Numbered from the stretch's first letter, positions 5,878 through 51,346 are shown. The stretch: DNA of 64,000 bases from Methylocystaceae bacterium (GCA_014190435.1 BJGJ01000003.1:5552-69551), one strand, 5' to 3'. Numbers and translations: made by a program. Notes: generated by a model not told the origin, from the sequence alone.

Positions 5878-7331
5878 CTCGCGTATTGATGATACAGGGC
5901 ACTGGCTCTGATGTAGGCAAGTCACTTCTTGTCGCAGGATTAGCGCGAGCTTTTGTTAACCGTGGATTGCGTGTAGCGCCTTTTAAACCACAAAATATGT
6001 CTAATAACGCAGCTGTCACTTTAGATGGTGGTGAAATTGGCCGAGCGCAGGCGCTACAGGCCCGGGCTGCGCGTATTATATCAACGATTGACTTAAATCC
6101 GATACTTTTAAAGCCTCAGGGTAAAAATGGTGCCCAGATCATCGTGCGCGGCAAGATTTATGGTCAAGCTGAAGCAAAAGAGTATCAAGGCTGGAAAGCA
6201 AATCTTCTACCAGTAGTGATGGAAAGTTTTAATCGATTAAAGTCTCAATATGATCTAATTATTGTAGAGGGCGCAGGTAGCGCTGCAGAAATTAATTTGC
6301 GCGTCAACGATATTGCAAATATGGGGTTTGCTCAGCAGGCGCAATGTCCCGTCATCCTTGTTGGCGATATTGATCGAGGCGGCGTAATCGCTCAATTGGT
6401 TGGATGCAAGGCTGTTCTTGATGAATGGGATTTGGCTTTAATAAAGGGATTTATTGTCAATAAATTTCGTGGTGACGCCTCTCTTTTTCAAGACGGAATG
6501 GAGTTCATTGCATCAAAAACAGGCTGGAAATCTTTTGGACTGCTTCCGTTCTTTGACGCAGCGTCAAATCTTCCTGCAGAAGATGCTTTTTCATTAAGAA
6601 AATCACAGCCTAGTTCTCAAGACGGTCTTGTCATAGCTGTCCCAATGTTGCCCCATATCGCTAATTTCGATGATTTTGATCCATTAAAAATAGAGCCGGG
6701 CGTCACGTTAGTTTTTGTGCATCCGGGAGAGCCGCTGCCAAATACGGCGAAGTTGATCATTTTGCCAGGTTCTAAGGCTACAATCTCAGATTTAGCAGCA
6801 TTGCGCGCTAATGGGTGGGATATTGATTTATACGCTCATGCGCGTAGAGGCGGAAGGATCTATGGCGTTTGTGGCGGTTATCAGATGCTTGGGCGCGTTA
6901 TAAGCGATCCAAATGGCGTTGAAGGATCCCCCTCTACTGTCGATGGATTAGGACTTCTCGAAATAGAAACTGTTTTAACAGACAATAAAACCTTACTTCA
7001 GTGTTGTGGGCAATGGATAAGTACGGACACGCTAGTCACAGGTTATGAAATGCATGTTGGGGCAACAACCGGAGCTGATTGTTTAAGGCCAGTTATATCT
7101 TATGAGCAGGGTCGCGTGGATGGTGCCAGTGCATCGAGCGGGCGTATCTCTGGAGCGTATCTTCACGGTATTTTCTCAAATGACGCGTTTCGTAGACTGT
7201 TTTTACAAGAGCTTGGTCATCAAGACTTAGGCCTAAATTTTGAAGAAATGATCGAACAAACGCTGGATAATTTGGCTGCCCATTGTGAAGCCTATATTGA
7301 TGTAGATGCGCTTTGGAATATTGCGCGATGA
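5874..7331 (+). CDS. cobQ: Cobyric acid synthase
   Basis: [23 protein letters not shown], glutaminase [14 protein letters not shown]. Confidence 0.96.
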
Positions 7332-8341
7332 CTTCCCATGATGTTTCTCAACAAATTGTGCATGGAGGGCGTATCAATGAGGCCCAGACCTTATTCCCAG
7401 ATGCGCCTTTGCCCTGGATTGATCTCTCTACAGGAGTGAATCCTCGCTCCTATCCAATTCCACAGATCGCGCCGCAGGCATGGTCAAGGCTCCCTGACGA
7501 GGGAGCTTTTAGCAGTATCGAAGAGGCTGCTAGGATGAGATATAATGCACCGCCGCAAGCCCGGGTTGTTGTTGGCGCAGGTGTTCAGTCTTTTATCCAA
7601 ATATTACCGCATTTATTTCCAAGACGCCGCGTTGCGATCCTTGGTTTTACCTATGGCGAATACGCGCTAACCTGGCGGGCTTCTGGGGCAGTAGTCGATG
7701 TGATCGACACAATTGAGCAATTAGACAATAATTTTGATATTGGTATAGTTGTTAATCCAAATAATCCAGATGGTCGATTGATTGATAAGGCGCAAATTGT
7801 CGATTTGGCACAACGCTTCACGCAAAAAAATAAATTACTGATTATTGATGAGTCTTTTGCTGATTTTTATCCGCAATTCAGCGCTGTTGATCTATCTTCA
7901 TTAGATGGCGTTATTATTCTTCGGTCATTTGGTAAGACTTATGGCTTGCCCGGACTAAGGCTGGGATTTGCGCTTTGTAGTAGAGCCAATGAGCGGTTGC
8001 TACGCCATGCTCTAGGTCCATGGGCCGTATCTGGTCCTGCTCTTGCTATTGGTCTAAAGGCTTTGTCGGATCCTAAGTGGGTAACTTGTGCTGCAATCAT
8101 GTGTCAGAGCGATGCAGATCGGCTAGATGATTTACTGAAAAAGAATGGATTTATCGCTATTGGCGGTACGATGCTCTATCGACTTGTTGAGCATAGAGAG
8201 GCGCAGAGACTTTATCATGCGCTCTGTTCTCATGGAATTTTGGTTCGTCGTTTTCCAGAAAAAGTAGCGTGGCTTCGGTTTGGGTTGCCAGATAATTCTA
8301 AAGCCTGGGCTCGGTTAACAAGGGCCTTCGAGGCTACATGA
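7328..8341 (+). CDS. cobD: Threonine-phosphate decarboxylase (CobD; called CobC in the aerobic pathway)
   Basis: [21 protein letters not shown] lysine in [15 protein letters not shown]; ATG at 7328 overlaps the cobQ stop. Confidence 0.88.
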
Positions 8342-9069
8342 ATGATATTCAAATGAAAAAAAATTCAGATCCTGCGCAAGAGGATATATCCCGAGAGCTT
8401 GCGCCAACGCTAAAATTTGATGATTCAGAACGTGAAGCTGTCTATCGGGCGATTTATACGCGTCGGGATGTGCGGAATGAATTTCTTGAAAATAATGTTC
8501 CACATGATGTTTTGATGCGTATTCTTGATGCCGCGCATCACGCTCCTTCCGTCGGTTTGATGCAGCCATGGAATTTTATAGTAATACGCGACCCTAAAAT
8601 ACGTGAGGGCGCTTATTCGGTTTTTCAGCAGGCGGCAAAAAAAGAAGAGGCGCTTCTACCAATAGAGCAGCGCGCGCATTATCGCTCATTAAAGCTCGAG
8701 GGTATTCTAAAGGCTCCATTAAATATTTGTGTTACTTGTGATCGCAATAGAGGTGGAGAAATCGGATTAGGACGCACGCAGCAGCCCGATACCGATCTCT
8801 TAAGTACGGCTTGTGCTGTTCAAAATCTATGGCTTGCGGCCCGCGTAGAGGGTATTGGCGTCGGTTGGGTGAGTATTCTCAGCACTGATGATATTCGTGA
8901 GATATTGAAAATCCCAGATCATATTGTCATCGTAGCTTATCTTTGCGTGGGTTATGTTGATAAAGCTTATCTTCGTCCGGAACTTGAGGTGCGTCGATGG
9001 TCTAGTCGACTTTCCTTGGATGAGCTCGTTTTTGAGGATGGCTGGGGTAAAAAGCCTAAAGTTTTGTAA
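8338..9069 (+). CDS. bluB: 5,6-dimethylbenzimidazole synthase
   Basis: RRDVR, AHHAPSVGLMQPW, LKLEGI, QNLWLAARVEGIGVGWVS. Confidence 0.93.
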   Translation: MNDIQMKKNSDPAQEDISRELAPTLKFDDSEREAVYRAIYTRRDVRNEFLENNVPHDVLMRILDAAHHAPSVGLMQPWNFIVIRDPKIREGAYSVFQQAAKKEEALLPIEQRAHYRSLKLEGILKAPLNICVTCDRNRGGEIGLGRTQQPDTDLLSTACAVQNLWLAARVEGIGVGWVSILSTDDIREILKIPDHIVIVAYLCVGYVDKAYLRPELEVRRWSSRLSLDELVFEDGWGKKPKVL

Positions 9070-9115
9070 AAAGATCGATTCAGAGCCAATAATTTAAAAA
9101 ATAATTTGAAGCTAA

Positions 9116-12100
9116 TTAGCTTCTTGGTGCTAATTTTAATTTTGACTTTCGTTGCAATTTACTCATCAAGAGATAGATAACGGGTGTTGTATAAAGTGTA
9201 AGAACCTGGCTCAGTAATAATCCGCCAATAATTGTTATTCCCAGTGGACGTCGGAGTTCGGCACCAATGCCTGTTGCAAAGGCAAGTGGAATTGCGCCGA
9301 AGATCGCGGCTAAGGTCGTCATTAAAATTGGGCGAAAACGCTCCCGGGCAGCCTCTAGAGCAGCGTCATGAACGGACAGTCCCTCTTCTCTTTCAGCTTG
9401 AAGAGCGAAATCAACAAGCATGATGCCATTTTTTTTAACGATGCCAATCAGCAACAGAATACCGATGAATGCGATAACGGTAAATTCTGCTCCAAAAGCT
9501 TCTAGCGAAAGAAGGGCGCCAAGTCCTGCTGAGGGCAATGTCGATATAATTGTAATTGGATGGATCAAACTTTCATATAGAATACCAAGAATAATATAGA
9601 CAGCTAGGAGTGCGGCAAGAATTAATGTGGCCATACCTGCAGCTACTTTACGGAAATCTGCCGCATCACCAACAAAGGCGGTATGTAAGCCGCCGGGAAG
9701 GTTCATTTCTTCGATCGTTGTCTCAATCGCTTTTGTTGCGCCGTCCAATGTCGCGCCAGGTGCTAAGTTATAAGATATAGTGATTGCAGGTATTACGCCC
9801 TGGTGATTTACAACAAGCGGCATATAGCCGCGTTCTATTCTTGCAAGCGCAGTAAGCGGCACCTGCGCGCCATTTGTTGACGAGACATAAAGCCCAGCAA
9901 GATCTCGAATATCTCTTTGTCGAGATATTGGGGTCTCAAAGATAACGCGATATTGATTACGTTGAGTAAAGATAATTGTATCTTGCCGCTGTCCAAAAGC
10001 GCTGTTGAGCGCAGCGTCAATGGATGAGATTGGCACATTCATTCGAGATGCTGCGTTTCGGTCGATAATAACGGAAGCACGTAATCCGCCACGCTCTTTA
10101 TCCGAGGTAACGTCGGCGAGCTGTGGAAGATGTTTTAATTTCTCAATAATCTTGCCTCGCCATTCTTCAAGTTCCTCTATTGAGGCGTCAGAGAGCGTGA
10201 ATTGATATTGAGCTTTACTGGAGCGTCCGCCATTGCGGAGATCCTGTGAGGGCTGCATGAAGACGCTTAAGCCGGCAATTTTTGCAAATTCTGGGCGAAG
10301 TCGTGCAATAACTTCCCGACTATTTGATTTTCTCTCGCCGGCTGGTTTGAGGGAAACAAACAGGCGACCTTGATTTTGTGAGGACGTTAGTCCCGTAGCG
10401 CCAATGAAAGAGCCGACATCAGCAACATCCGGGTCTAACATTAACGTATCGCTAGCGCTGCGTTGTAATCTCGACATTTCAGCAAAAGATACGTCTGGAG
10501 CGGCTTCAGTGGTGCCGTTAATTAGTCCAATGTCATCTTGAGGCAGATTTCCTTTAGGGATTGTTTTGTATAATTCGACAGTTGCGATAATTGTTAAAAT
10601 TAGAACGGCAAGCGTTTTCCAGGGATGACCGACAACAGGATGGAGGCTGCGGCCATATAAATCACTAATTTTATCTAATGAATTTTCAATGAAATGATCA
10701 AAGCTTGAGCGATTTCTCGATTTAAAATCTGGAAGCCATGCGCAAATCATCGGCGTGACCGTTAGGGAAACAATCATTGATATAATAATAGCGAAGGTAA
10801 GGGTTAGGGAAAACTCTCTGAGAAGCTTTCCCATAACCCCTTCCATGAAAAGAAGAGGAATGAACACGGCGACTAAAGATAGGCTGATTGAAAATACGGT
10901 AAAGGCGATCTGTTTGGCGCCGATCAAAGCCGCGTTCATGCGGCTCATGCCCTGCTCTCGGCAGCTCTCGATATTCTCAATCATAACAATGGCGTCGTCG
11001 ACGACAAATCCAACAGAAATAGTCAAAGCCATGAGAGAGAGATTATCGATGGAAAATCCCGCCACCCACATTGCCGCGCAGGTGCCAACAAGAGAAAGGG
11101 GAACTGTGATGCCGGCAGCGATAACGGGCGTCGCGCGGCGCAGGAAAGCAAAAACAACCATCATGACTAAAGTAACAGAAATCAATAGCGTAGTCTGAAT
11201 ATCATGTATGCTAGCGCGGATTGTTTGCGTGCGATCAGATAGAATATTAATTTTAATGCCAGCTGGTATCCATTGCTGCATCATAGGTAATATCGCTTTA
11301 ATTTGATCAACCGTCTCAATCACATTAGCGTTGGGTTGTTTTGTTACGATGATCAATACTGCAGGTCTTCCATTAAACCAGCCGGCGGACATTCTATTTC
11401 GCACGCCGGGGGCAACTTTCGCCACGTCTCCTAATTTTACAACTGCCCCTGCATGTGTCGCGATTACAATATTGCGATAATCCTCTGGTGTAGTAAGTTG
11501 GTCTGTCGTTGAGAGGGTAATTTCCTGCTTCTCGCCTGAAAGCATCCCTGTCGCCGAATGCGCATTGGCGCTCGCTAGTGCATTCGCTACGACGTCAACG
11601 CTTAAGCCCATTGAGACAAGTCTAGCTGAATCAACTTGGATTCTGATAGCTGGTTGTTCTGCCCCAGTCACGCGCGCCTCAGCGACGCCGGGAACTTGAG
11701 CAATGCGCTGGGCGATGACTGTATCTGTCGCATCAAAAATTACGCTTGTTGGCAGAGTATCCGAAGTCAAAGCAAGGACGAGCACGGGCATGCCCGACTG
11801 GCTAGCCTTTCTCAGTGTCGGAGCCATTGGTAGGTCTGTTGGAAGATCGGGTATGGCGGCGTTGATCGCGGCCTGCACATCGCGCGCGACTGAGTCCAAA
11901 TTTCTAGAGATATCAAATTGAAGGATTATTTGCGATGAGCCAAGAGAATTCGTTGATGTGATCTCGTTCAGTCCGGCGATACCAGCAAGTCTTCTTTCAA
12001 GAGGTGCGGCGACAGAGGCCGCCATTGTTTCAGGATCTGCGCCTGGGCGCATTGCACTGACGCTGATAATTGGAAAATCAATTGCAGGAAGGCTGGCGAC

Positions 12101-40658: not shown

Positions 40659-45634
<4,976 letters not shown>

Positions 45635-45644
45635 CCATAAGCTG

Positions 45645-46301
45645 TTAAACAGCTTTCGCTCCTGGTGTCTCATTATTTCGATAGGCCGTGCCAAATACGT
45701 AATCCCACCAAATAGCATGCACGCCAAATCCTTTTTCAGCATCCCGAAAATGATGCAGCATATGAAGTCTTTTTACTAATTTTCCAAGCTCTGAAGTTGG
45801 TTGACTATGATGCGTCCAATAGTGAACGCAATCATAAATCACATAGCCTATGATGAATCCTGCAAGGGCTGACCACATAAATGGCGCACCGAAAATAAGA
45901 TAAATAATCGACATCGCTATCACCATAATTGGCCCAGAGAGTAAGGGCGGCATAACAAGTCGAAGGGGGTCATTCGGGTAAACGTGATGAACGCCATGAA
46001 TAAGAAATTGGAATTGCGGTCCTAGACCAAATGGCAGAGAGAAGATGGTATGAAAAAGAAATCGATGGCCAAAATATTCTGTGAGCGTCCATCCAATATA
46101 GCCAAGAAAGACGCCAAGCAGCGTCAACGGCAAGCTGACGAGCGTTAGAGAATAAAAGATAAGTCCTAAAAAGATTGGCGTATAGATAATCACTGGCGTG
46201 AGATGGTGAACGCGCGAGAGTTTATCGAGCAGATTATTTTGAAACAGGCGGGGAGACGCCTCAAGAGATTCTGTCGGATTCTGATTATGTTGGTCAGACA
46301 T
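45645..46301 (-). CDS. Sphingolipid fatty acid 2-hydroxylase-like diiron enzyme (Scs7/FA2H family, no cytochrome b5 domain)
   Basis: WTLTEY..HRFLFH, HGVHH..P.D..RLVMPP, YD..HY.THH, HMLHH, WD.VFGT. Confidence 0.85.
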   Translation of the reverse strand: MSDQHNQNPTESLEASPRLFQNNLLDKLSRVHHLTPVIIYTPIFLGLIFYSLTLVSLPLTLLGVFLGYIGWTLTEYFGHRFLFHTIFSLPFGLGPQFQFLIHGVHHVYPNDPLRLVMPPLLSGPIMVIAMSIIYLIFGAPFMWSALAGFIIGYVIYDCVHYWTHHSQPTSELGKLVKRLHMLHHFRDAEKGFGVHAIWWDYVFGTAYRNNETPGAKAV

Positions 46302-46304
46302 TGA

Positions 46305-47300
46305 TTACTCCGCTGGCGATATAGAGATCGCCGAACGATCGGCGGCTTGCGTCACATTTTCAGAACGCGTGCCGAGCGAATAGCTTGGGTCAAAAATAAA
46401 GGTAACGAGTAAGGCGAACCAAGAGCGATGGCAGGTTAGGGTGTTATAAAACTCCGGCGCAATTAGCGTTAATTGAGGCAACCGGGTCCAAGGAATTTCA
46501 TGAAAGTCATGATGCTCATTGTGAAATCCAATATTTAACGCCAGCGTATTGAGCGAGCCATAATAATCAAATGTTCCTTGATTCGGCGCAAAGGCAAAAT
46601 GCTCTTGTAGCCATCTTGCGCTCAAGGGATGGAGTCCGCCAACCGAAAACCAAAAAGAGAAAAATAGATAAAGCAGGGCATTAGGTCCCAAAGCAATTAA
46701 AACAAAGAGATCAAAAAGGATAATGACCGCTGCGTTAATATAGGTCCACTGCCCCCAAATCGGCACAGTCCCTTTTAATCGGTTTAATCGGGCCAACTGG
46801 ATGGCGGGAAAGGCGAAAAGCCATAACGCCTTGCGCCATGTGCTGTTGCCAACCCAGTCAACTTCCCACTGACTAGGAATATCTGCATCATAGTCATAAG
46901 CAGAAAGGTGGGAATGATGTTTGATATGATAACAGCGAAATCCCATAGCTGTTGGGAAAGCATTCGACAGATCAGCAAGGATCGCTGTCCACTTATTGGC
47001 AAGCGGACTGTCAAAAACGCAGTTATGAATGGCATCGTGGATGATCACAAAATTAGCATGATTTGCGAAAGCGCCAACGCCAATGGCTAAGATCAGTGAG
47101 AACCACCAATAGTCTAGCCCCAGATATCCCATCATAGCAGCAAGCGTTAGCTGTAGGATAAAGATGCCGAGCGCAATTTTGAATGTGAGCGGATCTTTTC
47201 CAAAAAGATCCTGCACCTGGGGGTATTTTTCTAAGATCATGCGGCGACGCTCAACATGGGAGCGATCTGCGCCAGTAGAAGTTACCGAAATGCCGCTCAT
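46305..47300 (-). CDS. Sphingolipid delta-4 desaturase/C4-hydroxylase (DEGS/DES family)
   Basis: N-terminal Lipid_DES-like HVERRRMILEKYPQVQDLFGKDP; His boxes HDAIH, HIKHH, HNEHH; YYGSLN..ALNIGFHNEHHDF..IP...LP....IAPEFY; ATG 47300 overlaps the upstream stop. Confidence 0.85.
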   Translation of the reverse strand: MSGISVTSTGADRSHVERRRMILEKYPQVQDLFGKDPLTFKIALGIFILQLTLAAMMGYLGLDYWWFSLILAIGVGAFANHANFVIIHDAIHNCVFDSPLANKWTAILADLSNAFPTAMGFRCYHIKHHSHLSAYDYDADIPSQWEVDWVGNSTWRKALWLFAFPAIQLARLNRLKGTVPIWGQWTYINAAVIILFDLFVLIALGPNALLYLFFSFWFSVGGLHPLSARWLQEHFAFAPNQGTFDYYGSLNTLALNIGFHNEHHDFHEIPWTRLPQLTLIAPEFYNTLTCHRSWFALLVTFIFDPSYSLGTRSENVTQAADRSAISISPAE

Positions 47301-48493
47301 GCCCATGCATCCTGTATCTTTGATTGATCGACACTGCCGTCGTCTAATTTATTGACAAGAAACTTATCGTAGATGCGGTGAATTTTATCTATTTTTCCGC
47401 CAAACATTTCTATCGGCCGTCGCATCGACATATTGTCTTCCAAAACCCAGCCTGCCTCAAGATGCTGGATCGACAGAGAAGCGCCGCGTCGCTTCATTTC
47501 TTCAAACATTGACATCAAAATAGCCCCGCCCGTAGCGCTATTTTGCAAGGCTTTTCTCGTACCAAGAAGCACAATCCGGGCGGATTTGAATTTATGCTTA
47601 CGCATACTGGAAATAATGCGCACCAGGCCAAAAGGGAAGAGATGGCCCTGGAGATCTGAAAAGATTTCAAACAGATTAGGCAGGGCGATGACAAACGACT
47701 GAGGTTTACCATCCAGCTCTGCGACGATGCCAAAGTCAGGAGGCATGACAAATTTTAGTGCATCCGCGGTTGAGTCAAATTCTGCTTTTGTGAAGGGAAC
47801 ATAGCCCCAATTCCCACGCCAGCTATCGTTAAATAATTCTTCTAAAATTGGCGTTTCTTTAGTTTTGATCTCGGCCATATTCAAAGGGCGTAGGGTTAAG
47901 CGCTCACGCCATTCTTTTCGGCTAGAAACTCTGGGTTTTTCATCCAGATCATGCTCGGCGACAGTAATTTTATATGAAATGAGGTCGCGCGCTTTGGCGT
48001 ATCCCAGCGCATCCAAATGTTGTGAGAGATAGGGCGGGTGCCAGGGCATAAAAATCATCGGGGTGGCGTCAAATCCTTGGACAAGCACGCCGCATTCTCC
48101 GTTGATCGAGGGGGAAAAAGGCCCAGTAACGCGATCAGCCCCTTTTTCTCGCAGCCAGTTTTCGGCCGCCGTCAATAAAGCATGCGTAACATCGATATCG
48201 TCAATGACGTCTAATGCGCCAAATTGACACGGACTAGCTCCAATTGGCGAAATTCCTGATTTATAAACTTGCGCGCTAATGCGGCCGACCCATTGGCTAT
48301 TGCTACGCGCTAGAAACTTTTGCTCTTCAACGAGTTTGTAATGCGGATTTAATCGGTGTGAAAATAGCGTCCAGCGCTCAAGATCAATTGGAGGTGAAAA
48401 TCCCCGCATATCTTTGTAGAGCTGGCGAGGAAGTCTGCAGAAGGTTGCAAAGCGTCGAAGGCCATTAACGGGAAGAATGTCTATTTGCGCCAT
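47297..48493 (-). CDS. Bacterial ceramide synthase-like GNAT protein (bCerS family)
   Basis: VGRISAQ, AENWLR.KG...V.GPF..SINGECG.LV.GFD..PM..M.W.PPY, FNDSW..NWGYVP, WVLEDN..M, HRIYDK. Confidence 0.82.
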   Translation of the reverse strand: MAQIDILPVNGLRRFATFCRLPRQLYKDMRGFSPPIDLERWTLFSHRLNPHYKLVEEQKFLARSNSQWVGRISAQVYKSGISPIGASPCQFGALDVIDDIDVTHALLTAAENWLREKGADRVTGPFSPSINGECGVLVQGFDATPMIFMPWHPPYLSQHLDALGYAKARDLISYKITVAEHDLDEKPRVSSRKEWRERLTLRPLNMAEIKTKETPILEELFNDSWRGNWGYVPFTKAEFDSTADALKFVMPPDFGIVAELDGKPQSFVIALPNLFEIFSDLQGHLFPFGLVRIISSMRKHKFKSARIVLLGTRKALQNSATGGAILMSMFEEMKRRGASLSIQHLEAGWVLEDNMSMRRPIEMFGGKIDKIHRIYDKFLVNKLDDGSVDQSKIQDAWA

Positions 48494-48532
48494 ATTTTTA
48501 GTCCTAGCGGGCCTGAGCCATTGCTAAAATCC

Positions 48533-49819
48533 CTAAAGCGACGCGGAAGTTGTTTCGATATCAGGCGTGGCTGATTTTCTGACTGATCCAGCCATTGCAG
48601 CGGCGACAATTCTTTGCGCTTCTTCGCTAACAGGCGGAATCTGTTTCAAACACTGAATAACGCCGCGGATTTCAGCTTCGGTGTGATTTGCTGAAAAGAA
48701 GAAGCGCAGACGCGGTCCATCTTTAGGAACGCCAATTCTAACAACCGGCGGGACATAATAGCCGTCTTCGAGAAGATGCTGAGCCGCCCACATCGTTTCG
48801 ATATCGCTATCAAAAAGTATTGGCACAACGCCGCGGCCAATCGCTGGTCCGGTAGAAAATCCATATTCATGCGCAACAGTACGAAACAGTTCGGCATTGG
48901 CGGCAAGTTTTTCAATGCGCCAGGTTTCTTCTTGCATCAATCTTAACGCTGTGCGCGCTGCTGTGAGGATGACGGGTGATAGGCCTACGCTATAGACGAA
49001 GCCAGGTAGGGTAAAACGAAGGTAATCAATGACACTTTTTTTCGCACAAACATAACCACCGCAAGTTGCCAGTGATTTTGATAACGTGCCAACCACAAGA
49101 TCAATGCGCCCAGCGTCGACGCCTTGATGCTCTGCAAGGCCTCTCCCTGTTGCGCCAAGCACGCCAAGAGAATGCGCTTCATCGACAAGCAACCAAACGC
49201 CGTAGCGATCGCGAATATCTAGCAGCCTTGGGAGATCAGCGGTGTCGCCATCCATGCTGTAGACACCTTCAACAACGATCAAAACATTGCGATAGTCTTC
49301 ACGTTTTTTGTGTAAGAGATGCTCCAGATGATCAAGGTCGTTATGTCGAAATTTAATAACCTCTGCAACTGCGCCATCCGTTCCAGCAACAATACTGTTG
49401 TGCGCGAGTTCATCAATAAAAATGGCGTCCTTTTTGCCATTCATCAGCCAAGCGATTGTCGTGACATTTGCAAGATAGCCTGAAACAAGCGTCAGCGCGC
49501 TTTCCATGCCGATAAATTTAGCGATCTCTGCTTCAAATTTCTTGTGCGTTGAGCGTTCACCGCCAACAAGTCTTGAGGCCAGGGCGCCGATCCCAAGATC
49601 ATCGATCTCGCGTTTTGCTTCCGCTTTAATCAAGGGATGGGTGGCAAGACCGAGATAATCATAATTGGCGAAGCTAACGAGATTTTTACCCTGCATAGCA
49701 AGTTCAGCGCGCAATTTATCAAGCTGAGCAAAAAAAGGATCGTTCAGTTCTAAAAGGGCACTGCCAGCAAAACGGAACCGTCGCGTGGTAAAATCAGAAA
49801 GGCTCTTATGTCTCGTCAC
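48533..49819 (-). CDS. PLP-dependent alpha-oxoamine synthase, putative serine palmitoyltransferase
   Basis: FANYDYLGL, ASRLVGG, AHNS, EGVYSMDGD, DEAHSLG, PLP lysine in GTLSKS; probable GTG start at 49819 with GGGGA upstream. Confidence 0.8.
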   Translation of the reverse strand: MTRHKSLSDFTTRRFRFAGSALLELNDPFFAQLDKLRAELAMQGKNLVSFANYDYLGLATHPLIKAEAKREIDDLGIGALASRLVGGERSTHKKFEAEIAKFIGMESALTLVSGYLANVTTIAWLMNGKKDAIFIDELAHNSIVAGTDGAVAEVIKFRHNDLDHLEHLLHKKREDYRNVLIVVEGVYSMDGDTADLPRLLDIRDRYGVWLLVDEAHSLGVLGATGRGLAEHQGVDAGRIDLVVGTLSKSLATCGGYVCAKKSVIDYLRFTLPGFVYSVGLSPVILTAARTALRLMQEETWRIEKLAANAELFRTVAHEYGFSTGPAIGRGVVPILFDSDIETMWAAQHLLEDGYYVPPVVRIGVPKDGPRLRFFFSANHTEAEIRGVIQCLKQIPPVSEEAQRIVAAAMAGSVRKSATPDIETTSASL

Positions 49820-50006
49820 GGAATGTGTAATCCCCGCTTGGTCGAACGCTGCTTGGCGTCCGCAATAAGATAAACCGCGCCACGATATAGCGGCACCCAA
49901 GGAATCATCGTGTTGCTTACCATCCTCGCAGCAGGGATGCCAGTATGAGACAGTCCTTTCGGAGGGCTATGGCGCTTAGTCCCAGCATTCTCTATTGGGT
50001 TTTTAT

Positions 50007-50666
50007 ATGAACATTTCGTTTTCAACGCCATATGACGCCTCCAAAGACTGCTCGCAGCCCCTGCGCCTTTGCGTGGAGGGTCTCTCCGTGCAGCGCGCGG
50101 GGCGGCGAATAATAGATAATATTGGCTTCATGCTTGCGGAAGGCGAGGCCTTGGTGGTGAGTGGGCGGAATGGAGCTGGAAAATCAACTCTTTTACGCGC
50201 TCTTGCCGGGCTGCTTCCTCCGTCAAAGGGCGCAATCAGCCTCACCAGCGGGGCCTCAGAGGTCGAGTTAGCGCAAAATACGCATTACCTCGCGCATGCG
50301 GATGGAATGAAATTAGCCCTGAGCGTCGAAGAAAACTTAAATTTTTGGGCCAATTATCTAGTCGGCGCGCCAGATCCGCGCAGCCTATCCATTCCTCAGG
50401 CGCTTTCCATCGTGGGATTAACGCATGCCCTGCGCGCCCCATTTGGCGCGCTTTCGGCAGGTCAAAAACGTCGCGCTGCCTTAGCGCGTCTCCTCGTCGT
50501 TTATCGTCCGCTTTGGCTGCTCGACGAGCCAATGACCGCTTTGGATCAGGCTTCTCGCGCGCGCTTTGCTCAAGCAATGCGCGCGTATGGCGCTCAAGGC
50601 GGACTGATCGTCGTCGCAACGCATGAGCCGTTAGGTTTTAATACGGCTCAGGAACTCGTACTATGA
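50007..50666 (+). CDS. ccmA: Heme ABC exporter ATP-binding protein
   Basis: GRNGAGKS, LSAGQKRR, PLWLLDEP; start uncertain. Confidence 0.93.
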   Translation: MNISFSTPYDASKDCSQPLRLCVEGLSVQRAGRRIIDNIGFMLAEGEALVVSGRNGAGKSTLLRALAGLLPPSKGAISLTSGASEVELAQNTHYLAHADGMKLALSVEENLNFWANYLVGAPDPRSLSIPQALSIVGLTHALRAPFGALSAGQKRRAALARLLVVYRPLWLLDEPMTALDQASRARFAQAMRAYGAQGGLIVVATHEPLGFNTAQELVL

Positions 50667-51346
50667 CGCGCCGATCGATCGCGCCGCTCTGGTCTCTTTT
50701 TCTTCGCGAGTGGCGTGTAGCGCGGCGTATCGGCGGCTCAGGAGCAATGGGCGTCGTTTTTTTTCTAACATTTGTAACACTGGTGCCTTTTGCGATTGGC
50801 CCAGATCCCAATATGCTTGCGCGCATCGGTCCAGCAATTTTATGGATTGCCGCCTTAATGGCGTGTTTGCTGTCGTTTGATCGCTTGTTCCAAGCAGATG
50901 CAGAAGATGGTTCTCTCGATTTACTGCATCTGGGCAGCTCTCCTTTGGAGCTCGTTGTAATAATTAAATGTCTTGCGCATTGGGCGGCGAGTGGGTTGCC
51001 GCTCATTATTGCAGCGCCCTTTTTAGGTCTCATGCTGCAGCAAGAGCCGATTGCGCTTGGCGGCGTTGTTGCGACACTTTTGGTAGGCACGCCAGCCTTA
51101 ACGCTGATTGGCGGTATTGGTGCCGCAGCGACGGTGACGGTTCGTCGAGGCGGATTATTGATGGCGTTGCTTGTACTACCTTTGACAATTCCGATTTTGA
51201 TTTTTGGCGTATCCGCCGCGGAAGCAGCAAGCGGCGGCAGTATTCCGTTCCTGTCGCCTTTTCTTATTCTGTGCGCAATGACCCTCGCTGCTTTTGCGCT
51301 CTGTCCTTTTGCCGCTGCTGCTGCGCTGCGTTACCTTGGCGAGTAA
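50663..51346 (+). CDS. ccmB: Heme exporter membrane protein
   Basis: PFAIGPD, DAEDGSLD, LVLPL.IPILIFG. Confidence 0.94.
   Translation: MTRRSIAPLWSLFLREWRVARRIGGSGAMGVVFFLTFVTLVPFAIGPDPNMLARIGPAILWIAALMACLLSFDRLFQADAEDGSLDLLHLGSSPLELVVIIKCLAHWAASGLPLIIAAPFLGLMLQQEPIALGGVVATLLVGTPALTLIGGIGAAATVTVRRGGLLMALLVLPLTIPILIFGVSAAEAASGGSIPFLSPFLILCAMTLAAFALCPFAAAAALRYLGE

Follow-up and report, generated by a model that had tools for sequence, protein, structure and literature searches.

The analysed DNA, a stretch of 64,000 nucleotides from a Methylocystaceae bacterium that belongs to Methylocystis (GCA_014190435.1 BJGJ01000003.1:5552-69551; hereafter the window), contains on its minus strand, at positions 45645..49819, an operon for an alpha-oxoamine synthase, a bCerS-family acyltransferase, a DEGS-family membrane enzyme and an FA2H-type hydroxylase. 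The predicted product of this operon and of a second gene block outside the window is a glucosylceramide with a 2-hydroxyacyl chain and, likely, 4-unsaturation. It is highly probable that a ceramide-type lipid of some kind is made; the full structure, with both the 4-ene and the 2-hydroxy group, we consider somewhat probable. Every substrate and product named here is predicted from the observed genes, their families and folds, their linkage and their co-occurrence. The system is clade-wide and larger than described in the original prediction, in which the four genes alone were taken to make a 4-ene or phyto-type 2-hydroxyacyl ceramide. A ceramide-type pathway remains the best reading, but the operon is only a part of the system, since the likely reductase, acyl carrier and glucosyltransferase are encoded in the second block. 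The free ceramide is accordingly replaced by glucosylceramide as the predicted product.

Organisation and conservation of the operon

Open reading frame calls returned four intact genes, all on the minus strand, with the co-directional spacing already noted in the original prediction: 39 nt, an ATGA overlap (47300-47297) and 3 nt. The broad families given there for the four genes were also recovered in the Pfam, NCBIfam, PDB and fold comparisons. The synthase gene starts with GTG at 49819. A longer alternative, TTG at 49900, is unnecessary because the synthase orthologues start at the equivalent of 49819. The order bCerS-DEGS-FA2H is conserved in all 19 other loci examined from the same genus; in 16 of them the short flanks extend far enough to include the synthase. 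In a survey of 201 genomes of the family (DEGS at E 1e-40; FA2H with one match of 6e-16 excluded; close orthologue rows only for the other genes), synthase, bCerS and DEGS are contiguous in 39 genomes of eight genera, and all four genes occur in order in 22 genomes of four genera. Given this conserved order within the genus and beyond it, the four-gene arrangement is not due to chance. Scans for promoters and terminators stayed at chance level (3 against 6.8 expected and 7 against 5.8 expected). In RNA runs the operon of a relative appeared only in contigs that also span its flanks, which is uninformative with respect to expression and co-transcription.

The four enzymes

The first gene (48533..49819, minus strand, 428 aa) encodes an alpha-oxoamine synthase related to RkpG, WcbT and SgaB. 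It most likely functions as a serine palmitoyltransferase (SPT), as suggested by its Pfam family (Aminotran_1_2, PF00155, 3.5e-48), its place in the tree, and the pyridoxal phosphate motifs AHNS, DEAH and GTLSK with the PRLRF arginine. The best PDB match is the S. multivorum-type SPT 3a2b (219 bits), followed by Kbl (200), BioF and HemA (about 165) and the cysteate enzyme (148). Identity as BioF, Kbl or HemA was rejected. The scores are below the respective cut-offs (345 of 426, 285 of 460 and 239 of 339 bits), these enzymes form separate clades in the tree, and the BioF of this genome is encoded in a distinct bioF-bioD-bioA operon just outside the window. The possibility, raised in the original prediction, that the synthase might prove to be BioF or Kbl was thus not borne out.

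The synthase had further been assigned to the core ceramide pathway defined in Caulobacter (PMC11087976, PMC11324152). Here the ceramide-type reading stands, but the enzyme is not a Caulobacter-type Spt. Against the alphaproteobacterial Spt model NF047603 it reaches 222 of 670 bits. In a quick tree of 52 rows its orthologues are sister to fused synthases and synthases linked to polyketide synthases (PKSs; SH-aLRT 99). Identity is 44% to the RkpG-type enzyme of S. meliloti, 42% to a WcbT-like gene of Caballeronia and 40% to a PKS-adjacent gene of Pseudomonas, the Rkp and Wcb names having been assigned from gene order. The motifs ASRL, HNS, GTLSK and RLRFF are common to the synthase and the RkpG/WcbT/SgaB-type enzymes. 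Among the latter, PfSgaB, the product of a PKS-adjacent gene, is reported to be a serine-specific SPT, and its cluster's SDR (a short-chain dehydrogenase/reductase) is proposed as KDSR (PMC12134224). No type I PKS was found beside the synthase in the neighbourhoods read (operon and sister-genus loci). Caulobacter-type Spt was detected in none of the 201 family genomes at E 1e-100, with positive Caulobacter and E. coli controls. One CerR-type query found no orthologue in five of five complete genomes (best matches 26-29%, E 2e-19 to 2e-14, short of the 1e-30 threshold of PMC11334938), and the best match in the genome of the window is at 26%. This genome, which is 66% complete, gave no AcpR match and a best AasR match of 21%, and neither gene lies in the operon neighbourhoods. 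Hence, with its separate clade and with neither a Caulobacter-type Spt nor a CerR orthologue found, the first gene is placed outside the Caulobacter pathway. Five complete relatives have one synthase orthologue each, plus distant paralogues at 31-35%. Separately, several sister-genus genomes contain, in addition, a more remote pair of synthase and bCerS (about 41% and 28%), as at L174 (G298, 6749-9120) and in G215, G258, G368, G303, G307 and G391.

The second gene (47297..48493, minus strand, 398 aa) gave no Pfam, NCBIfam or PDB sequence match, and one further search only reached E 0.15-0.19. It is, however, 36% identical over 373 aa to YghO of E. coli BL21 (E 5e-80), which is listed as orthologous to CC_1154, the ceramide acyltransferase of Caulobacter (PMC9386255). 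A model built from a 22-row alignment (pLDDT 87) matches the tandem GNAT proteins 2wpw, 7q3a and MshD (E 3e-13, TM about 0.6). The protein is therefore best described as a bCerS/YghO-family tandem-GNAT N-acyltransferase and predicted ceramide synthase. This agrees with the original assignment of the GNAT gene to bCerS, the connection to Caulobacter running through YghO. Homologues on plasmids carry the labels yghO, N-acetyltransferase or dATP pyrophosphohydrolase.

The third gene (46305..47300, minus strand, 331 aa) encodes a membrane di-iron enzyme of the DEGS/DES family, predicted to act on dihydroceramide as a delta-4 desaturase or a C4-hydroxylase. The domains Lipid_DES (PF08557) and FA_desaturase (PF00487) both score above cut-off, and His boxes at 88, 125 and 260 accompany three hydrophobic segments, which substantiates the earlier family call. 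Four named DES-family proteins from animals and fungi are 29-35% identical to it; no PDB match was obtained. The closest named relatives are Methylocystis proteins (74-86%), and orthologues are present in the cultured species Methylocystis parvus, M. heyeri, Methylocella silvestris and Methylocapsa aurea. Matches occur in 34 of 36 same-genus genomes. Of these, 33 cover most of the protein at 76-94%, one of them with two in-frame stops, and one is partial; the two genomes lacking a match are 62% and 77% complete. One further observation concerns G035 (C139:6469-7378), where the match is interrupted by two TGA stops in frame and its C-terminal part is shifted, representing either a broken copy or an assembly error. 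Another concerns G021 (L002), a close relative with DEGS at 94% and the operon present in a genome of 2.1 Mb (rated as 98% complete); this small-genome Methylocystis lineage retains the operon.

In a quick, midpoint-rooted tree of 62 rows selected by hand, the third gene is nested in a clade of homologues from Bacteroidota, Acidobacteriota, Gemmatimonadota, Verrucomicrobiota and other bacteria. Base composition (0.45-0.50) is close to that of the flanks (0.47-0.55). A recent transfer from a eukaryote to Methylocystis was rejected on both counts, the position inside a wide bacterial clade being the reason to exclude a recent import. The description of the tailoring enzymes as eukaryote-type consequently holds for homology but not for recent origin, and ceramide hydroxylation is known in bacteria from the DesA-type hydroxylase CC_0202 of Caulobacter (PMC11324152). 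It had also been expected that generic annotation would hide the operon. This is not fully the case, since JGI already names many orthologues of the third gene 'sphingolipid delta-4 desaturase'.

The product of the third gene may alternatively be a DEGS2-like C4-hydroxylase, which in the same pathway would give a phyto-type (t18:0) glucosylceramide. We consider this unlikely. The DEGS family holds both delta-4 desaturase and C4-hydroxylase activities (PMC11765627). Several orthologues carry the JGI label 'sphingolipid 4-desaturase/C4-monooxygenase', and none of the eukaryote-like references is closer to the third gene than the others (29-36%). Against the hydroxylase speaks the absence of a short motif that mouse DES2 needs behind its first His box for hydroxylase activity, the third gene reading HDAIHNCVFD at this place; the requirement may, however, not transfer to bacteria.

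The fourth gene (45645..46301, minus strand, 218 aa) encodes an Scs7/FA2H-type hydroxylase, a predicted ceramide acyl 2-hydroxylase. FA_hydroxylase (PF04116) was matched, and four His boxes (79, 102, 160 and 180) align to those of Scs7. Yeast Scs7 is the sole PDB match (E 6e-25), aligned over its residues 184-374, the catalytic domain. The earlier Scs7/FA2H call is supported by these data. An N-terminal cytochrome b5 domain is lacking in the 218 aa, with no b5 Pfam match.

The second gene block and its linkage to the operon

A second block recurs in sister genera and comprises genes for an acyl carrier protein (ACP), a ketosynthase (KS), two MaoC-type dehydratases, an SDR, a GT21 and a GT2 glycosyltransferase. 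In the genome of the window it is found on two contigs, C40:30-3142 (ACP, KS, two dehydratases, SDR; L181) and C18:26309-29964 (dehydratase, SDR, GT21, GT2; L180). The ends of these contigs share an overlap of 1357 bp (95% identity), which suggests that the bin contains two strain variants. The SDR is the best match in this genome for the SDR of the Pseudomonas PKS-synthase cluster (36%, 2e-46) and for S. meliloti RkpH. The GT21 matches PF13506 at 5e-45, and the sole PDB match of the G308 copy is a ceramide glucosyltransferase (26qf/26qs, E 2e-30). As a side observation, a stand-alone second copy of the block ketosynthase is present in L178 (G011, 7819-9033), as in many genomes of Methylocystis and of g181.

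Of the 201 genomes, the same 44 contain DEGS and FA2H, 43 of them in nine genera. Within these 44 genomes bCerS, the synthase, the ketosynthase and GT21 are each present in 43 and the SDR in 41, the GT21 scores across the family being bimodal (at least 43% versus at most 35%). Stronger evidence than these counts is provided by the changing gene adjacencies. In 17 of 49 genomes, from nine genera, no more than 10 kb separate the operon from the KS or SDR. FA2H adjoins DEGS in 23 of the 44 genomes, and in 17 of the other 21 it lies within 2.1 kb of GT21. In G282 the SDR is located immediately behind the synthase, and in the sister-genus genome G308 all eleven genes form a single block.

These arrangements also bear on a second alternative, in which a tailored but free ceramide, or 3-keto-ceramide, would be the product of the operon, while the second block would serve another lipid, such as a special acyl chain of lipid A, a glycosylated diacylglycerol or a hopanoid. 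Such a division is distinctly unlikely. It would fit the distance of 45-61 kb or more between the two blocks in Methylocystis, and the presence of the ketosynthase in genus g213, where DEGS is absent. ACP, KS, dehydratases and SDR also constitute a complete elongation cassette, in which the SDR could be the ketoacyl-ACP reductase. The bacterial GT21s that were tested, from rhizobia, glycosylate diacylglycerol (PMC8231724), and Methylosinus trichosporium OB3b has an unassigned monogalactosyldiacylglycerol (MGDG) synthase (PMC9239053). However, the two blocks are physically linked repeatedly and in differing arrangements, FA2H pairs with GT21 and the SDR with the synthase as just described, and the block GT21 reaches only 146-175 of the 310 bits required for HpnI (146 for the copy of this genome).

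A separate, plcP-linked paralogue further argues against a diacylglycerol role of the block GT21. This second GT21 of the same genome, on contig C79, is only 24% identical to the block enzyme and 36-50% identical to rhizobial-type copies, three of which share 28-30% with the block GT21. Because of its plcP and GT4 neighbours and its rhizobial-type likeness, we assign the diacylglycerol role to the C79 enzyme, which probably acts in glycerolipid formation under phosphate starvation. HpnI or Pgt identity of the block GT21 was rejected, as it is far under the HpnI cut-off and distant from the plcP-linked rhizobial GT21s. The C79 locus itself (C79:1-4001, L179), with GT4, a plcP-like gene, a sugar epimerase and the second GT21 in a row, is likely a cluster for glycolipid formation under phosphate starvation. 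It is also a candidate for the MGDG synthase that lacks an assigned gene in type II methanotrophs.

Proposed pathway

For the preferred glucosylceramide pathway, the following sequence of reactions is proposed. The dedicated ACP, the ketosynthase and the two MaoC-type dehydratases would build or extend an acyl chain, as a stand-alone counterpart of the polyketide synthase RkpA/SgaA. The synthase would condense this chain with serine to a 3-keto base, which the SDR would reduce in place of CerR. With this replacement, reduction would likely precede acylation, as in eukaryotes. The reduced base would then be N-acylated by bCerS, DEGS would introduce the 4,5 double bond and FA2H would hydroxylate the amide-linked chain at position 2. 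Finally, GT21 would transfer glucose onto C1, and GT2 possibly adds a second sugar.

It is least probable that the synthase uses alanine, glycine or cysteate, or that the product serves to anchor a capsule, a role suggested for rkp/wcb clusters, and is hence no classical ceramide: the nearest outside relatives of the synthase are indeed RkpG/WcbT-type enzymes among capsule-export genes, or fusions (FAAL-ACP-synthase or PKS-synthase) of unknown product, and the Acidisoma orthologue (50%) adjoins capsule genes, but the Beijerinckiaceae blocks examined contain no capsule or lipoteichoic acid (LTA) synthase genes, GT21 requires a C1 hydroxyl, which serine supplies, and the cysteate enzyme scores below SPT in the PDB (148 versus 219 bits).

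Several observations weigh against the glucosylceramide pathway. The synthase is below all NCBIfam cut-offs for Spt, BioF, Kbl and HemA and only 30-34% identical to canonical Spts, which fall apart from it in the tree, as do Kbl, HemA and BioF; the tree was computed without bootstrap. The Pseudomonas reference cluster has the same PKS-synthase-SDR locus-tag spacing as sga but is not from the strain of the tested PfSgaB. For the SDR no PDB match was found at E 1e-22, and three genomes (G217, G269 and G287) have no close SDR. In G307, which is 94% complete, bcerS is absent from the operon, the synthase being followed directly by DEGS and FA2H (L173, 6067-9214). The co-occurrence counts are not independent evidence because the carrier genera are kin. 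Beyond the family, a synthase or bCerS is nearby at only four of 70 DEGS loci for which flanking DNA was examined; all five genomes tested among these more distant DEGS carriers have an Spt-like gene elsewhere, three of them above cut-off. In addition, lipidomics of Methylosinus trichosporium OB3b describes glycolipids and ornithine lipid and does not mention ceramide (PMC9239053).

Comparison with known sphingolipid systems

Every part of the pathway belongs to a known family. With the pathway of Caulobacter and E. coli BL21(DE3) (Spt, AcpR, AasR, CerR/epi, bCerS/aca) it shares the bCerS orthologue and, as predicted, a synthase fed by a dedicated ACP. In contrast to these species, the synthase is of another clade, no orthologue of CerR or, in the genome of the window, of AcpR or AasR was found, and DEGS and FA2H are within the operon. 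Compared with Caulobacter, the predicted head group is a sugar rather than phosphoglycerate, and the hydroxylase is FA2H-type rather than DesA-type like CC_0202.

The sga cluster of Pseudomonas fluorescens MYb115 (SgaA PKS, SgaB SPT, SgaC proposed KDSR), rkp of S. meliloti and wcb of Burkholderia share the synthase clade (40-44%) and the SDR type (32-36%). Here, however, a stand-alone ACP-KS-dehydratase set replaces the type I PKS, bCerS, DEGS, FA2H and GT21 are additional, and capsule genes are missing. The predicted series of reactions is the same as in the eukaryotic glucosylceramide pathway (SPT, KDSR, CerS, DEGS1/DES1, FA2H/Scs7, UGCG). DEGS (29-36%), FA2H (Scs7, 6e-25) and GT21 (UGCG, 2e-30) are true homologues of the eukaryotic enzymes. 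In contrast to eukaryotes, the acyltransferase is GNAT-type instead of CerS, FA2H lacks b5, DEGS belongs to a bacterial clade and the genes are organised in operons. A bacterial FA2H-type hydroxylase tied to sphingolipid formation is reportedly also found in a different phylum, namely the myxobacterial fatty acid alpha-hydroxylase Fah of Ring, Schwaer and Bode 2009, to which the present enzyme is likened by description only. Likewise, BT_0972 of Bacteroides thetaiotaomicron is a bacterial SDR-type KDSR for 3-keto reduction (PMC9278070); the predicted role of the Methylocystis SDR is likened to it by description, not by sequence.

In the original prediction sphingolipids were not known to be a recognised feature of this lineage. 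This must be qualified, since Methylocystaceae have been stated to possess SPT, linked to intracytoplasmic membranes, in a study whose tree places this branch among Caulobacter-type enzymes (PMC10411912). That statement probably refers to other taxa or copies, because Caulobacter-type Spt was not found in our family sample. The supposed novelty of the operon does hold within the open-access literature, where no description of the operon, the pathway or Methylocystis sphingolipids was found. A survey of Spt, bCerS and CerR (PMC11334938) does not mention desaturases or the methanotroph genera of interest.

Neighbouring genes and related loci

The operon is flanked by a convergent gene for NAD-dependent DNA ligase (ligA, 43439-45634), which ends 10 nt from the hydroxylase stop, and by a divergent ABC ATPase gene. 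The latter, read as ccmA from its sequence, forms part of a heme-exporter-like ccmA/ccmB pair (49995-51346). The same setting of ccmA/ccmB and ligA was seen again at other Methylocystis loci.

Four loci elsewhere combine related genes differently. In a Rhizobiales genome (L077, 3077-11264), synthase, DEGS and two GT4 genes stand in this order beside an SDR and LptF/G/B-like transporter genes, the Lpt names being read from sequence. An Acidisoma plasmid (NZ_CP126995.1, 6882-19185; L151) carries bCerS, SDR, the synthase orthologue mentioned above, an FA2H-like gene (34%), glycosyltransferases, and capsule and LTA-synthase genes; this locus appears to bridge the Methylocystis-type system and rkp-type clusters. 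In G282 (L145, 3953-14944), synthase-SDR, ACP-KS-MaoC and bCerS without DEGS are located beside genes for myo-inositol-1-phosphate synthase and a CDP-alcohol phosphotransferase, possibly an inositol-phosphoceramide variant. Finally, in a canonical alphaproteobacterial Spt-AcpR-CerR-AasR cluster (L103, 377-2091), bCerS is immediately preceded by an FA2H-like gene (30%).

Biological significance

Against alphaproteobacterial Spts the synthase scores E 1e-51 to 1e-60 and thus falls short of the cut-off of 5e-68 used in PMC10411912. If the proposed pathway is correct, this would show that a whole clade escapes genome surveys based on Spt and CerR. In that case, culturable, well-studied and genetically tractable methane oxidisers make a lipid class that was not found reported for them in the literature searched. 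The operon would also provide a first testable bacterial DEGS enzyme, as no characterised one was found in that literature, and the second block a bacterial GT21 with ceramide as its acceptor. Deletions could then test whether ceramide has the role in intracytoplasmic membranes that was proposed in PMC10411912; in Methylosinus trichosporium OB3b, for example, marker exchange works (PMC9239053). Tentatively, type II methanotrophs and their acid-soil relatives may possess a full cerebroside pathway in eukaryotic order, with a non-canonical SPT and a stand-alone ACP-ketosynthase. They may thereby form true sphingosine-based glucosylceramide alongside hopanoids and, in wetlands and soils, be a hidden bacterial source of 'eukaryotic' cerebrosides. 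Glucosylceramides with a 4-ene and a 2-hydroxy group in peat and sediment would then not need to be of fungal or plant origin, and those derived from methane should presumably be depleted in 13C.

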